Below, in pieces: positions 1-5,291 of a DNA stretch of 64,000 nucleotides; within the stretch, counting starts at the first letter, position 1; every line of letters starts with the position of its first letter. Made by a program: the position numbers and the translations under genes. The notes beneath the pieces are model-generated. The model saw only the letters and a list, made by a program, of their open reading frames with translations. It ran no database searches and was not told where the DNA came from. The stretch is from Candidatus Bathyarchaeia archaeon. GTDB taxonomy: Archaea; Thermoproteota; Bathyarchaeia; Bathyarchaeales; Bathycorpusculaceae. The stretch spans positions 24,184 to 88,183 of the forward strand of contig JBEKGO010000006.1 of NCBI GenBank assembly GCA_050012755.1, written 5' to 3'.

Positions 1-567
1 TTCCACTTTGGAATAAATACTCTCGGAGGAGGTAACGATGCTCTATACGATGATTATGTTGTCACAAGCATGAGCGGTAATGCAGGCGCAGTCTCCTTCT
101 GGAGTTGTGGCGGAAACAACGTTTCTTATTGCAGTATCATCGGTGAATCTGCGATTGACATGCAGTTTGGTTCAAGCCGCAACACCATAACTGATAACAA
201 CTTTGTTGGTAGCGTTTGGGTCGAGATAGGTGGAGATGAGACAGTTGATAGAAACTACTGGAGTGACTACTTTACAAGATATCCTAATGCAACCGAAATA
301 GATTCAACTGGAATAGGCAATACACCGTATGTATTTTATTCATACGTAAACAATGCATCCGGTCTGACTAGCAGTCCACTCTATGATTACCACCCTCAAA
401 TTAAACCGCTTAGCCTTTCGTTCTTTCCAAGTGGCGCATCATTTGCTTCAACAAATCAACAAGCGTCAATTGCCGAATTCCCGTTAGCGATAATTGCTCT
501 TGCCGTTGTACTTATAACAAGCACATTGGTGGCCTTTGTGTACAAAATAGGACGCCCAAAATCTTGA
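1..567 (+). CDS. C-terminal part of a secreted NosD/parallel beta-helix repeat protein with PEF-CTERM-like anchor (5' end outside window)
   Basis: Frame is open from base 1. Contains NTITDNNF and RNYWSDYFTRYPNATEIDSTGIGNTPY motifs typical of archaeal NosD-like proteins, then IAEFP, a TM helix and a basic tail. Confidence 0.75.
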   Translation, partial: FHFGINTLGGGNDALYDDYVVTSMSGNAGAVSFWSCGGNNVSYCSIIGESAIDMQFGSSRNTITDNNFVGSVWVEIGGDETVDRNYWSDYFTRYPNATEIDSTGIGNTPYVFYSYVNNASGLTSSPLYDYHPQIKPLSLSFFPSGASFASTNQQASIAEFPLAIIALAVVLITSTLVAFVYKIGRPKS

Positions 568-616: not shown

Positions 617-1504
617 CTATGTTGCTAGTGCATCCACTAAGGCTTTGACGTCTTTAATCCACGTGGTTATCGTTTCGATGTTCTCTGTCTGTTTATGTGA
701 AATTTTGTGCAATCCTTTTAACTCGTCAAGTTGGTGCTGATAATATCTAGCCAATTGGTTTAGTGACTTTGTGAACTGTGTTGCCGATTCACCATGTTCC
801 AGTTTGTCCCCTAAGCTACTAAGCATGCTCTGCACCTCGTCCACTGACATACTACTGTTTTTCTCAAAGTCTTGAAGCACCCATTGTTTGACGAGCATGT
901 TGCGGTTCCTCCAACCAGCGGATTGCTCAGTGAATGTTTTGAGTACGGCTTGGTAAAGTTGGGTGACACGATTTGTGTGAAGTTCCTGTGTTTGAGGCGT
1001 TTCTTCGGTTGTCATCTGAGTCTGGGAATTACGTAGCGGCTCAGCAGAGGAGACGGTTAAGCTCACAGAAAGCCTAAGTGGGGCATCCAACGCCATCCAC
1101 AGCCTGCTTAGCTCTTTCAGAGAAAGCGAATCTATCTTCACCGCTAGCTCGCTCTTGTTCTCCGCATCTGCAACTTCAAGAAATGGCTTGTCTAAAAACA
1201 TCTGAATTATTTTTGCAAGCAGTGCATGGTCGTCTTTGTCGTTTTCGGTAAATGGAGTAATGAGATAATGAAGGGCAAAAGAGGCATTGGTGTTTCCTGC
1301 CACTGTTTCTTCAGTTATGTTGTATAGAAAAATCGTCAGCTTTTTGTTTCCTCGACTGATTGCGGTTTTTGGAGAAGAAAATGAAATCTGCTCTCGGGTT
1401 GAGACTGTCGCTGTTGTGGCGGAATCATTTTCTATGCATTCCCAAATTAGATTTGCAAGCGCCGTGTCGACATGCGATATGAGGTCTTTTTGATCCATAG
1501 ACAT
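617..1504 (-). CDS. DUF4255/Pvc16-like N-terminal domain fused to a helical C-terminal domain
   Basis: ISHVDTALANLI...ISFSSP...LTIFLYNITEE...LHYLITP...DHALLAKIIQ...LSLKELSRLWMAL..PLRLSVSLTV follows the DUF4255 pattern. Confidence 0.7.
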   Translation of the reverse strand: MSMDQKDLISHVDTALANLIWECIENDSATTATVSTREQISFSSPKTAISRGNKKLTIFLYNITEETVAGNTNASFALHYLITPFTENDKDDHALLAKIIQMFLDKPFLEVADAENKSELAVKIDSLSLKELSRLWMALDAPLRLSVSLTVSSAEPLRNSQTQMTTEETPQTQELHTNRVTQLYQAVLKTFTEQSAGWRNRNMLVKQWVLQDFEKNSSMSVDEVQSMLSSLGDKLEHGESATQFTKSLNQLARYYQHQLDELKGLHKISHKQTENIETITTWIKDVKALVDALAT

Positions 1505-2007: not shown

Positions 2008-2319
2008 TTACGTACGACGTTTTCGTCGCCGAATTAAAATCATCACTCCGTAGAGCACTCCTCCAGTGAATAGCGACATAAAGACTCCTTGAAACAGATT
2101 ATACGCCAGACCATAACCATCATAAAAATTAGAGATTAAACCAAACGATAAGAAGATACTTACCATAATTATAATAATTGCCTCGTTTGGAAGCTCTCTA
2201 ATCTTGAAATGTTGCTTTAACCTGTTTTCAAATGAGGACAAAGTGGTTTTTTGGGGGTTTGGCAAAGAGGGCTCTTTTGGAAGCCAACCTCGAAAAAGAT
2301 TCTCTATGCGCTTTTTCAT
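2008..2319 (-). CDS. Small 2-TM membrane protein with N-terminal RGWLPKEPSLP motif
   Basis: Two hydrophobic helices, poly-Arg tail, ATGA overlap with the upstream gene. Confidence 0.75.
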   Translation of the reverse strand: MKKRIENLFRGWLPKEPSLPNPQKTTLSSFENRLKQHFKIRELPNEAIIIIMVSIFLSFGLISNFYDGYGLAYNLFQGVFMSLFTGGVLYGVMILIRRRKRRT

Positions 2320-3365
2320 ATTTCCAATACTCCAAAATTCGTTTTGTCAGCCCAGAGGTTCCCAAAAACCTTATCGTTAAATCCTACTTTTGCATTGACA
2401 GCCACTGAAAAGTGCGTTCCTTGAGGAACCCACAAGTCTGTTGAAAATGTTTCGCTTTGTTTGGGGTGGAGTGTTGATTCTGTCCAGCTTATTTTCGTTT
2501 TATAGTCAGAATTAACCAGAACGGTTTCAGGGTTTCCAATGTACAATGTTGCGATGCCTAGTCCGATGCCTATCGGAGTCCCGGGACTTGCTTGTGGCTC
2601 CCAATCAGTTGTGGCAGTTTCGTTTTGGGTGTCTATAGAGGCATTTACGATGGCAGAGTTAAAATTTCTTTGTGGACACTGCAAATCTATCTCTAAATAG
2701 TAGTAGTCTTTCTTGCTGTCAAGGTCCGCGTATTGGTATACGTTGACGCCGACGTTAAAACTGCCGTTATTACTTGTTTGGCTCAGGCTTTTTATCATTG
2801 TTTTTGAAGGATTAATTATTTGTGGGTCCGCGGCGTAAACAGGCGCAAACGATGCGACGCATAACAACACCAACAATGCCACGGGCGCCACCTGAATCAA
2901 CTTTGAGGACGCGATACCTTTGCCCATGCGTAGCGCTACCAGATAAACTAAGACAACAGCTTCCAAAGGCAATGCGAACCTTAGCGGAACAACGTAAAAT
3001 GCAACAAGCGATATTGCCAAAAATATAATGGCTATGTCTACCCAACCTTTTTTCAATGTGAGCAAGCCTGCGCCAACAACAAACAAGGCAACGCTGTCTG
3101 TTGCTGTTACTGTAGCCATAAGGAACTGCACGTTAAAAGAGAGGTAGCCAAGTTGTGTTACCTGCTGTATAAGTGCCATTATTGCGCCAAAACCGAATAT
3201 CCAAAGCAAAGCGGTAACGAGCTTCAAGCCTAGTGGCGCTCGGCTTAAGAAAATTCTTGGGGCTTTTTTATTCTGTGAATTTGACGCATTTAAGGTTCTG
3301 GGAAGGCTTGGTTCTTTAGGTAACCAACCGCGAATGCGGCCTTGAAGGTACTTTAGTGGTTTCAT
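2316..3365 (-). CDS. Multi-TM membrane protein with N-terminal RGWLPKEPSLP motif and C-terminal beta-rich extracellular domain
   Basis: About 5 hydrophobic segments followed by a Ser/Thr/Asn-rich soluble domain; ATGA overlaps at both ends. Confidence 0.8.
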   Translation of the reverse strand: MKPLKYLQGRIRGWLPKEPSLPRTLNASNSQNKKAPRIFLSRAPLGLKLVTALLWIFGFGAIMALIQQVTQLGYLSFNVQFLMATVTATDSVALFVVGAGLLTLKKGWVDIAIIFLAISLVAFYVVPLRFALPLEAVVLVYLVALRMGKGIASSKLIQVAPVALLVLLCVASFAPVYAADPQIINPSKTMIKSLSQTSNNGSFNVGVNVYQYADLDSKKDYYYLEIDLQCPQRNFNSAIVNASIDTQNETATTDWEPQASPGTPIGIGLGIATLYIGNPETVLVNSDYKTKISWTESTLHPKQSETFSTDLWVPQGTHFSVAVNAKVGFNDKVFGNLWADKTNFGVLEI

Positions 3366-3841
3366 GTACTCAACTCCGGAATAAGTTTACTGAAAATTAC
3401 GCGAGCTAATTTGGCTGGGTGAATACTTTGGGCATCTTCCACTGTTATGCCTCTTTCTTTGGCTATGTCAATTAGATACTGCCGGGTTTGGTTTAGGAAG
3501 GCTGTGTCGGTGACTTCTTCAGGGTTGTCGTGCCAGTACCAAACTTTTATTCCGTAATTTGTGCTGTAGGTGAGGATGGCTTTGCGTTTTAAGGCGGGGT
3601 GATAAGCTAAAAGTATGCCTTCTTTGGGGTACAGTTTTGTGATTTGGAGGTCGTTTGCTTGGGCTACATCCAAAAGCGTGATTGATAACTTGGCTTCAGT
3701 TGCTAACTTTGTTTGGTTAATGAACTGCCTAGTAGTGTTAAGTTTGTCGGCAATTGTGGCGGCGGATAAACCTCTGCTTATCAAGGACCAAACGAGTTTT
3801 TGTTTCTGAGTTAATGGTGATGCTAAGGTGGAAGATACCAA
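3362..3841 (-). CDS. Tfx/LuxR/sigma70-region4-like HTH DNA-binding protein (probable start TTG 3841; ORF track extends to 3898)
   Basis: LTQKQKLVWSLISRGLSAATIADKLNTTRQFINQ is an HTH pattern; a TATA-like box lies just upstream of the TTG. Confidence 0.75.
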   Translation of the reverse strand: MVSSTLASPLTQKQKLVWSLISRGLSAATIADKLNTTRQFINQTKLATEAKLSITLLDVAQANDLQITKLYPKEGILLAYHPALKRKAILTYSTNYGIKVWYWHDNPEEVTDTAFLNQTRQYLIDIAKERGITVEDAQSIHPAKLARVIFSKLIPELST

Positions 3842-3863
3842 CGTACACACGACGTAAATAATA

Positions 3864-3884
3864 AATTGTTTACAATTATTTAAG
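3864..3884 (-). promoter_or_regulatory. TATA box with abutting palindromic operator
   Basis: Minus-strand CTTAAATA (3884-3877) runs directly into AATTGT-N2-ACAATT (3864-3877). Confidence 0.5.
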
Positions 3885-3973
3885 GTTTCAGTCGGCAAAG
3901 ATTAAAGGTCATTCTAATGGCGACGTATATAGTCAGCCATCGCCGCGTCAACCAAAGGTCGTGTTCAATTTGG

Positions 3974-4040: not shown

Positions 4041-4862
4041 TTGAGTTTACCTAAGAGAAGTTTGATTAAGCCAATTGTTGCAGCGGTAATACTTGTGCTT
4101 CTAATAAGTGGAATAGCCATCTTTGTTCTTCCAAAGTACATTTACATTAGCCCTTTTTCCTCGTTCTACGGTTCAGGCGTTGTTTACTACAAGACTGTAG
4201 GATATAGCACTGAAATTAATGGCAGTCAATTACCAACATACTTGGTTTCAGTTACATTGTTAAACGATGACCCAGTGAATCATTTCTCGGGTGGAAATAC
4301 TAACACATACACTGTTTCCAAGGCAGATTGGGATGTGATTGCCCCCGGAGATGGCGTGAATATTAAGCTTTTACCTAACGCACATGCACAGTTGGTTGAT
4401 CAATTTCCAAACCCCGGTGGTACTCCTGCATGGCAATCGGTACCTGCAGACTTGCCGCTTACCCTTAATGTAACTTCCAACAAACCTCAATATACTATTG
4501 GAGAAACCGCCAACTTTACCGTTCGCTTAATCAACGACCCTGCGTTGTCAAGCGGCATACCTTCCAATGTTTCACTTTCCCTTTTCAAAGATTGCATATT
4601 TTATACCTTCTTAAACGCAAAAATAATTACTTCAAATGACAATCTGCTCCAATATGACAATCCGCTTGAAATCAAAACTGTAAGTCTTCAGCCAAACCAA
4701 GAGATTGACTATTCATTCAATTGGAATCTCACAAATATTCAGCCAGGCACTTGTTTTGTGCGAGCATATATCGGATACTATCCTCCATTACAGGGTCAGT
4801 CGACAACGCTGTTTAGGTCGATAACGCTTACGGCAACAACGACGATCGATGTGACTAAATAA
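4041..4862 (+). CDS. Membrane-anchored extracellular protein with Ig-like C-terminal domain
   Basis: N-terminal TM anchor; TSNKPQYTIGETANFTVRLIN...FNWN...PGT pattern of Ig/BsuPI-like folds. Confidence 0.7.
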   Translation: MSLPKRSLIKPIVAAVILVLLISGIAIFVLPKYIYISPFSSFYGSGVVYYKTVGYSTEINGSQLPTYLVSVTLLNDDPVNHFSGGNTNTYTVSKADWDVIAPGDGVNIKLLPNAHAQLVDQFPNPGGTPAWQSVPADLPLTLNVTSNKPQYTIGETANFTVRLINDPALSSGIPSNVSLSLFKDCIFYTFLNAKIITSNDNLLQYDNPLEIKTVSLQPNQEIDYSFNWNLTNIQPGTCFVRAYIGYYPPLQGQSTTLFRSITLTATTTIDVTK

Positions 4863-5291
4863 ATGACAGATCGAAACGCTGACAGAAAGAACGAAGAGGT
4901 TTTGCATGGTAAAACCCTGCTCGTCTACCGATTCATTATAACCAAAAACGAGCCTGTCGGCGTAAGAGAAATCCAGCGGAAACTAAAGTTTAGTAGCCCC
5001 TCTCTTGCTCAATACCACATAGACAAACTGAAGAATGAAGGCTTAATAAAAGAAGAAACAGGCGGATACATAGCGGATAAAGTCATTTTAAAGAATCTTG
5101 TACGATTTAGAAATATGCTGATTCCCCGTTTTTTCTTCTATTTCTTGGTCTTCACCCTCGGCTTCATCGTGGAGCTTACTTTGCTACTTCCACCAATTGT
5201 CACCAGAGAATATGCGGTCGCTGTCGGGTTCACGTTGGCTGGTGCCGTAGCCTTTGGTGTTGAGACCTACAGAAACTGGAGAAGACTGTAA
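4863..5291 (+). CDS. Membrane-tethered winged-helix transcription regulator
   Basis: GVREIQRKLKFSSPSLAQYHIDKLKNEGLI wHTH followed by two C-terminal TM helices. Confidence 0.8.
   Translation: MTDRNADRKNEEVLHGKTLLVYRFIITKNEPVGVREIQRKLKFSSPSLAQYHIDKLKNEGLIKEETGGYIADKVILKNLVRFRNMLIPRFFFYFLVFTLGFIVELTLLLPPIVTREYAVAVGFTLAGAVAFGVETYRNWRRL

Follow-up and report, generated by a model that had tools for sequence, protein, structure and literature searches.

We describe a conserved three-gene operon of an uncultured peat archaeon of the class Bathyarchaeia. The operon lies on contig C6 (JBEKGO010000006.1), within an analysed stretch of 64,000 nucleotides (nt) that is called the window below. It encodes a small putative DNA-binding protein with a helix-turn-helix (HTH) domain, designated the regulator here, and two membrane proteins of 349 and 103 amino acids (aa) that begin with the same short peptide, designated the tag. 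The tag is strictly linked to this regulator family, and its type changes together with the type of the regulator. We see about an even chance that the tag docks the C-terminal domain of the regulator and that the membrane proteins tether or titrate a self-regulated repressor, coupling their state or abundance to transcription.

Bathyarchaeia are an abundant uncultured group of peat, soil and sediment. In archaea, transmembrane signalling to transcription is poorly understood, and many archaeal lineages have few two-component systems. The module is a conserved candidate for signalling of this kind. It offers a conserved regulator, a candidate operator and a peptide of 20 residues that can be synthesised.

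The operon and its shared peptide

The source assembly of 2.41 Mb consists of 65 contigs and has a G+C content of 41.6%. Three open reading frames (ORFs) on the minus strand of the window make up the operon. The regulator gene (3362..3850) is likely to start with GTG at 3850 and to encode 162 aa; the longest ORF (3362..3898) has a TTG start at 3898, and the length of the database homologs, 159-162 aa, is in line with the GTG start. According to the ORF listing, the 349-aa membrane protein is encoded at 2316..3365 and the 103-aa membrane protein at 2008..2319. The initial annotation of the window had the three genes chained by ATGA overlaps, and both junctions, 3362..3365 between the HTH and 349-aa genes and 2316..2319 between the 349-aa and 103-aa genes, were again read as ATGA on the minus strand. 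The overlaps indicate that the regulator gene is translationally coupled to its membrane-protein genes.

In the 349-aa protein the peptide RGWLPKEPSLP spans residues 12-22 (3300..3332), in the 103-aa protein residues 10-20 (2260..2292). The whole tags, residues 1-22 of the former (MKPLKYLQGRIRGWLPKEPSLP; 3300..3365, minus strand) and residues 1-20 of the latter (MKKRIENLFRGWLPKEPSLP; 2260..2319, minus strand), follow a common formula, M-x2-KK-x-L-x2-RIRGW[LF]P[KQ]EP, and contain neither Cys nor His. It had been claimed that the two membrane proteins are dissimilar except for the identical 11-aa peptide. Indeed, BLASTP aligns the tag only and shows no similarity beyond residues 5-22 of the 349-aa protein and 3-20 of the 103-aa protein. 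The coding sequences of the 11-mer differ at 12 of 33 bases and at 8 of 11 codons, and the encoded peptide is identical; the conservation is thus at the protein level. The reading of the eight synonymous codon differences as selection on the peptide agrees with this recount and with the residues that are invariant across dissimilar proteins (see below).

A search of the six-frame translation of the source genome for RGW[LFIVM]PxEP gave three occurrences. Two are the 349-aa and 103-aa genes. The remaining occurrence is in a 282-aa multi-pass membrane protein that is encoded on contig C20 and starts with MNPKKYLKQFRGWLPKEPEAP; its gene lies directly downstream, by an ATGA overlap, of an HTH paralog that is 68% identical to the regulator. 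The genome has exactly two such HTH paralogs. We also built a profile hidden Markov model of the tag from 24 N-terminal residues and used a cut-off of i-E<1e-3. In the source genome the profile has only three significant matches, with E-values of 2.5e-9 (349-aa protein), 8.1e-9 (103-aa protein) and 9.9e-5, and the next best match has 0.064. All three are directly behind the two HTH paralogs.

Linkage of the tag to the regulator family

The locus sample includes 76 loci, obtained by scanning a single genome of each species; almost all carry the label Bathyarchaeota or Bathyarchaeia. The tag profile has 169 matches in these loci, all of them downstream of the HTH gene and on its strand, and none elsewhere. 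The number of matches is 0, 1, 2, 3, 4, 5, 6 and 8 in 13, 15, 19, 13, 9, 3, 3 and 1 loci, respectively, and at least one match is present in 63 of the 73 loci that have at least 300 nt downstream. The simpler pattern GW[LFIVMY]Px[ED]P has 125 six-frame matches in 58 of the 76 loci, again exclusively downstream on the HTH strand.

The tag consensus is M-N-V-K-K-S-L-E-N-R-I-R-G-W-[L/F]-P-[K/Q]-E-P-x-L-P. A start codon could be assigned for 117 tags, and in 93 of these the GW pair begins at residue 13. Among 65 aligned tags of dissimilar proteins, positions M1, G13, W14, P16 and P19 are invariant, and position 18 is almost always Glu (88 Glu and 5 Asp of 93).

For an unbiased test, independent of the HTH-based choice of loci, we searched 201 whole genomes of the class with the degenerate DNA pattern MGNGGNTGGNTNCCNNNNGANCCN, which corresponds to RGW-x-P-x-[DE]-P. 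It has 20 matches in 11 of the 201 genomes, versus two for the reversed-pattern control. Close orthologs of the HTH gene (66-100% identity) are present in ten of the genomes (G000, G090, G094, G124, G130, G145, G154, G157, G169 and G199). Fifteen of the 20 matches are located 33 nt to 5.3 kb downstream of a close ortholog and on the same strand, including an array of eight behind the ortholog of G154. One match, in G124, is on a separate contig from the HTH ortholog, in an assembly of 140 contigs. Thus, among the genomes with a close ortholog, 15 of 16 matches are behind the HTH gene. The other four, in genomes without a close ortholog (G104, G125, G198 and G200, with P, F, P and L as the variable residue), are at about chance level. 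In G090, G130 and G169 the close ortholog is present and the strict pattern has no match. A check of the co-occurrence of motif and HTH family had been suggested in the initial annotation; it came out in favour of linkage both in the loci (169 of 169 matches) and genome-wide (15 of 20).

A full-text literature search at the level of listings gave no description or function of the tag motif, in agreement with the earlier statement that none was known, and nothing relevant for the combination of a Tfx-type regulator, Bathyarchaeota and a membrane or anti-sigma partner.

Some loci deserve separate mention. Five Bathycorpusculum-type loci (L003, L007, L011, L014 and L021) encode regulators about 77-84% identical to that of the window and have no downstream tag match; the next protein of L003 starts with MNTKKSMKDQ and diverges after that. 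This clade seems to have lost the tag. The regulator genes of L072 and L076 are broken by frameshifts or stops, and L072 still has a downstream tagged gene (MNVKRSLENRVRGWLPKEP..). These two loci have the appearance of modules in decay.

Co-variation of tag and regulator types

Distant HTH homologs (20-38% identity) were found in 45 further genomes of the 201, and 60 regions were taken. These relatives align with the window HTH over the full length. A class of them, which we call Cys-type, has C-x2-C-x5-C in the C-terminal domain, at the positions of V110, T113 and T119 of the window clade. In no other column of the 55 unique Cys-type sequences, which have 22-38% identity to the window HTH, do Cys or His reach 50%, and all three columns have Cys in 55 of 55, the class being defined by this three-Cys motif. 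The genes downstream of the distant HTH genes, mostly with ATGA overlaps, encode membrane proteins that also start with a tag, and this tag bears a Cys (for example ..YLGWCPG.., ..WRWCPQPER.., ..DWCRQPER.., ..YWCPISP.. and ..[DNY]ACPFPPG..). Neither the regulator nor the tags of the window clade contain Cys; the window combines a Cys-free HTH with tags of the W-L-P type.

We counted pairs for unique HTHs that match at least 110 profile positions, merged identical sequences and re-read the pairs by eye. A partner with [W/A/G/F]-C-[P/R/Q/S] in its first 25 residues accompanies 44 of the 55 Cys-type HTHs; five of the remaining ones have no ORF or are at a contig end, and six have other partners. 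A GW-[LFIVMY]-P partner accompanies 61 of the 73 Cys-free HTHs; six of the remaining ones have no ORF or are at a contig end, and six represent ORF-picking artefacts, a fragment or a lost tag (L003). Among these pairs no Cys-type HTH was found with a Cys-free W-tag partner, and no Cys-free HTH with a Cys-tag partner. Such tracking of the regulator type by the tag type is what a docking motif predicts.

The tag type does not follow the body of the membrane protein. Compared from residue 29 on, the partner of the Cys-type HTH of L114 (..LINWCRNPD..) and the partner from L043 (..RIRGWLPKEP..) are 46% identical over 143 residues (E 7e-43); the alignment begins past the tags, and the tags do not align. 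Likewise, the NosD-like Cys-tagged partner of L093 is about 30-34% identical to the NosD-like W-L-tagged partners of L022, L031 and L036. Since homologous bodies carry either tag type, the tag fits the neighbouring regulator and not the body. This rule holds whether bodies moved between systems or paralogs changed in parallel. The claim that the sensor bodies are interchangeable is borne out on both sides: unrelated bodies share a tag, and homologous bodies carry either type.

The Cys-free clade has conserved His residues of its own: H81, H104 and H141 are His in 71, 70 and 70 of 72 regulators, respectively, and the Cys-type regulators are without them. In a fourth column His occurs in 66 of 72, and the window regulator has R147 there. 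A third, more distant module type is represented by L094 (G154:C9) and L095 (G148:C17), with HTHs of 22-24% identity and three Cys; the partner, a membrane protein, has a conserved Cys-free N-terminus (..EKVIRPPxQQITSGTIFKPSKAYL..) and a bPH_2 domain (E 5.6e-10). The idea that a Methanosarcina DUF family carries a GWCP N-terminus found no support: when the Cys-type partners were scanned with Pfam, no such family came up.

Family and predicted structure of the regulator

The database contains 1356 relatives of the regulator at E<=1e-3. The best 120 are 79-100% identical and have no Pfam domain; the source labels of the relatives are hypothetical or “CsgD family”, with placement in Bathyarchaeia. 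Among 1.84 billion cluster representatives, 332 clusters match at E<=1e-3 and 147 at E<=1e-10. In a sample of 251 genomes of the phylum, ten have a regulator match at E<=1e-8, two of them outside the class. On the basis of these searches the module is almost confined to Bathyarchaeia.

Family profiles match the regulator weakly and in the HTH alone: GerE in Pfam with E 0.017, and tfx (TIGR00721) in NCBIfam with E 0.0015. The latter match covers residues 28-61 only and scores 18.4 bits, below the curated cut-off of 60.25, and the Pfam scan gave no TFX_C (PF14601) at E<=0.1. Compared with solved structures, the alignment profile of the regulator finds 8hno (E 5.5e-4) and 1nr3 (E 0.009), in the HTH region only. 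The structure 1nr3 is Tfx of Methanothermobacter, and 8hno and 8hnp are EnfR (TON_1525) of Thermococcus onnurineus.

The AlphaFold model of the regulator is confident, with a predicted local distance difference test (pLDDT) of 89.2 and a predicted template modelling score of 0.81. It has helices at residues 12-22 and 27-33, a long helix at 38-62, four strands within 66-102, and helices at 113-129 and 142-153. The sole dip in confidence within the fold is at residues 101-110 (mean 72), which adjoin the co-varying positions. VIA superposed residues 7-58 on EnfR (8hno_A) with Z 5.8, a root-mean-square deviation (rmsd) of 0.9 Å and 29% identity over 52 residues. It also listed many LuxR-type and sigma-region-4 domains at Z 4-6, in rows that cover regulator residues 1-98 only, and sigma4/anti-sigma complexes are among these neighbours at Z of about 5. 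Foldseek gave local LuxR-type matches with a probability of about 1 and no global fold match in the PDB at E<=1e-3; 8hnp_A is at rank 32 with template modelling (TM) scores of 0.34/0.38 over 142 columns and an rmsd of 13.5 Å. Atlas neighbours that carry TFX_C have a score of 0.87, which is a lead only.

According to the model, the regulator has an N-terminal HTH of the sigma-70-region-4/LuxR type and a C-terminal alpha+beta domain. The order of the elements is as in EnfR; therefore we call the regulator Tfx/EnfR-like, yet by curated thresholds it is no member of the family. The likening of the regulator to a sigma factor in the initial annotation has to be given up, for the protein has just one sigma-region-4/LuxR-like HTH of the Tfx/EnfR kind. 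Five long database rows (P0180, P0184, P0190, P0192 and P0245), considered as fusions of a regulator with a partner, look like other fusions or frameshifts.

Promoter and candidate operator

Between the TATA box and the start codon of the regulator gene is a candidate operator, GTAAAYA-N6-TRTTTAC (3854..3873). The TATA box, TTAAATA as read on the minus strand (3877..3883), is about 27-33 nt upstream of the GTG start, a spacing that implies an mRNA with little or no leader. The strict operator sequence precedes the HTH gene in 58 of 69 loci, and in 53 of 69 a TTAAATA-like element directly precedes it. Usually the operator is 2-4 nt past TTAAATA, and its end is separated from the start codon by about 8-12 nt.

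The initial annotation had pointed to another palindrome, AATTGT-N2-ACAATT (3864..3877). It is present, abuts the TATA box and overlaps the left half of the conserved operator. It was not seen in the other loci compared and is specific to the window; it is GTAAAYA-N6-TRTTTAC that is conserved among the loci.

Sites between the TATA box and the transcription start are typical places at which archaeal repressors keep polymerase from being recruited. The position of the operator at the TATA box and transcription start makes autorepression likely, and the palindrome is probably an autoregulatory site that the regulator would bind to repress its own operon. The source genome contains three strict copies, two of which are in the two HTH promoters. 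The third (C18:19581-19600, GTAAATA-N6-TATTTAC) is at the 3' end of a 151-aa MarR-like ORF and gives no clear lead to a regulon; it could be a chance occurrence or a further target.

Bodies of the membrane proteins

Tagged proteins in related loci are about 98-637 aa long and have from one to about ten hydrophobic segments by a crude hydropathy count, which places the start of the first segment near residue 30-50. Arrays of 2-8 diverse genes for membrane or surface proteins, all with a common N-terminal beginning, occur in the loci. In a comparison of 112 tagged proteins with Pfam, three were NosD/beta-helix proteins, one had a sub-threshold match to Cation_ATPase_C, and 108 were without a family.

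No family above the cut-off was found for the 349-aa and 103-aa proteins in Pfam, NCBIfam, PADLOC or PHROGs, and none of the three operon proteins has a defence or phage family in PADLOC or PHROGs. The 103-aa protein bears the tag and two hydrophobic segments. Among 5.8 billion clustered proteins, no more than 14 homologs of the 349-aa body turned up. The AlphaFold model of the 349-aa protein is of low confidence (pLDDT 62.5 overall) and has five long helices at residues 45-173 and an all-beta domain at 188-343; the helices are probably about five transmembrane helices, and the beta domain is probably extracellular. The tag region appears in this model as a short helix at 3-12 and an extended Pro-rich segment, with disorder over 13-44. 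A resemblance of the beta domain (2316..2800) to beta-sandwich pore-forming proteins was not accepted: Foldseek gave E of about 4e-6, but the TM score was 0.23-0.30 and the rmsd exceeded 10 Å, and with so poor a model the likeness cannot be trusted.

Genes next to the operon

A divergent pair of genes on the plus strand (4041..5291) is located beside the operon. It encodes a 273-aa protein with an N-terminal hydrophobic segment (4041..4862) and a 142-aa protein (4863..5291) with a winged HTH of the LexA_DNA_bind type (E 9.8e-6) and a hydrophobic C-terminal half. The 142-aa protein may be a second regulator in the neighbourhood, possibly anchored in the membrane. A 295-aa protein encoded on the minus strand (617..1504) has a Pvc16_N domain (E 3.9e-23), a family known from phage-tail-like contractile injection systems. 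The ORF at 1..567 resembles a beta-helix surface protein with a C-terminal anchor.

Discussion

The module could work as follows. A small Tfx/EnfR-like DNA-binding protein would repress its own operon through the candidate operator palindrome. Together with it, one to eight membrane proteins would be made that have unrelated bodies and all start with a cytoplasmic tag of about 20 residues. The tag would be a linear motif, a basic helix followed by G-W-[L/F]-P-x-E-P, and would serve as a docking peptide for the alpha+beta domain at the regulator's C-terminus. By tethering or titrating the regulator at the membrane, the partners would couple their state or abundance to transcription. The gene order, the selection on the peptide, the exclusive linkage, the co-variation of the two types and the conserved operator are observations; the physical binding, the DNA binding and repression, the way in which signalling runs and the kind of signal are inferred. 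The docking idea itself goes back to the initial annotation. The linkage, the interchangeable bodies and the co-variation of tag and regulator speak for it; its original form does not survive, as the co-varying residues are in the C-terminal domain and the proteins are not a sigma/anti-sigma pair.

Several observations weigh against docking or reduce the weight of the evidence for it. Of the 73 loci of the window type, ten have no tag match, including a Bathycorpusculum clade with an HTH about 84% identical; the regulator can thus persist without a recognisable tag. Six of the 55 Cys-type HTHs (L079, L087, L094, L095, L124 and L135) have partners that lack the Cys motif, and one Cys is gone from the L100 regulator, yet S-W-C-P-G is retained in the partner 278 nt downstream. 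We defined the tag classes with the data already in view. When 127 unique HTHs were placed in a quick maximum-likelihood tree, the Cys-free ones formed essentially one clade (71 of 72 rows, SH-aLRT 91), plus L100; the switch between Cys and no Cys may therefore be a single event, which gives the co-variation a small statistical weight. The search for longer regulator forms gave no fusion of a regulator with a partner, which is weak evidence. Finally, co-inheritance within an operon could yield much of the linkage without any physical contact.

The linkage could also arise if the tag were a sorting, insertion or processing signal that never touches the regulator, the HTH protein being merely the transcription factor of the operon. 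The position of the tag would suit such a signal: it is at the extreme N-terminus, at a near-fixed distance from Met1 (93 of 117), is found on membrane proteins only, about 20-35 residues before the first hydrophobic segment, and is predicted to be unstructured alone. We nevertheless consider this explanation unlikely. A general targeting signal should be scattered over the genome, yet all three significant profile matches of the source genome and 15 of the 16 pattern matches in genomes with a close ortholog are behind the HTH gene, and no conserved peptidase or translocase candidate was present in the loci examined. Moreover, a sorting signal leaves unexplained that the Cys state of the tag tracks that of the regulator even on homologous bodies. 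An explanation that does retain the contact, and that we hold to be distinctly improbable, is that the C-terminal domain of the regulator is a chaperone or holdase for newly made partners. Its occupancy would then report uninserted partner, not an external signal. The same linkage and co-variation count in favour of this explanation; in addition, ATGA coupling gives a fixed stoichiometry, and the tag emerges before the rest of the nascent chain. It fits the present data just as the tether model does, but large extracellular domains (NosD/beta-helix in 3 of 112 partners, and the 349-aa protein's beta domain) point to functions in sensing or at the surface.

We give hardly any credence to an explanation at the DNA level, in which the conserved 5' ends are recombination cassettes for the shuffling of variable surface-protein genes behind a single promoter, or remains of recent duplications. 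The arrays of 2-8 diverse genes with the same beginning and the fast evolution of the bodies, for example the mere 14 homologs of the 349-aa body, are what one would expect from shuffling. The window tags, however, encode an identical peptide with 12 of 33 bases and 8 of 11 codons different, and thus provide no long identical DNA for recombination.

If the tag does dock the regulator, this would explain many “hypothetical” membrane proteins and provide a portable peptide-protein pair, and the Cys-type relatives would point to a metal-bridged membrane tether. The three-plus-one Cys pattern of the relatives hints, speculatively, at a metal site common to both proteins. A further proposal, which we regard as tentative and rather doubtful, is that the ancestral contact was such a site: three Cys of the regulator and one of the tag would form a zinc clasp or an Fe-S bridge and make the membrane tether sensitive to redox state or metal. 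The window clade would have replaced the bridge by a metal-free or His/Glu contact, and the common tag would let a single regulator read up to eight sensors. A His/Glu metal site made of H81, H104 and H141 of the regulator and Glu18 of the tag is speculation based on conserved columns.

Comparison with known systems

The part of the EnfR paper considered here (PMC10570040) describes EnfR as a dimeric repressor of the Tfx family that binds a 36-bp promoter pseudo-palindrome and is built from a pair of N-terminal helices, a stem formed by one long helix, and an alpha+beta head. [quoted passage not shown] It differs in that it is far below the NCBIfam cut-off and in that its C-terminal domain has no sequence match; also, that part of the paper describes no tagged membrane partner for Tfx or EnfR (PMC10570040).

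The module shares several features with extracytoplasmic function (ECF) sigma factors and their anti-sigma factors. The genes are probably co-transcribed, the partner has its N-terminus inside the cell, with a conserved cytoplasmic beginning on variable bodies, and the HTH of the regulator is sigma-region-4-like. The differences are substantial. No sigma-2 domain was detected in the regulator by Pfam, NCBIfam or structure comparison, and the host is an archaeon; to our knowledge, sigma factors are absent from archaea. With its roughly 20 residues the tag is a linear motif, whereas an anti-sigma domain comprises about 80. A single regulator can have as many as eight partners, and the co-varying residues are in its non-HTH C-terminal domain. 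The partners of the window have no match to an anti-sigma domain in Pfam or NCBIfam, and their tags have no Cys or His, unlike the H-x3-C-x2-C of zinc-binding anti-sigma (ZAS) domains. The initial annotation drew an analogy to ECF sigma/anti-sigma pairs; the module is not itself such a pair.

A similar arrangement of one conserved N-terminal domain on variable sensor bodies is known from the RsgI/SigI sets, and ZAS domains bind zinc. Sites shared between proteins are also known: an intermolecular zinc clasp joins the CD4/CD8 tail and Lck, and there are Fe-S or Zn sites that need a partner protein for completion. The three regulator Cys and the one tag Cys of the distant relatives could form a four-ligand site like the clasp. 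Unlike in the clasp, the shared site is deduced from conservation patterns, and the window pair has no Cys. Were the shared-metal-site reading true, the module would be an archaeal counterpart of sigma/anti-sigma signalling assembled from different parts. By analogy, its logic resembles that of membrane anti-sigma factors or of partner switching between a chaperone and a regulator. Membrane anti-sigma factors appear to be the closest known systems in logic, and the parts that differ are the Tfx-like regulator, the 20-residue tag and the use of one regulator for many bodies.

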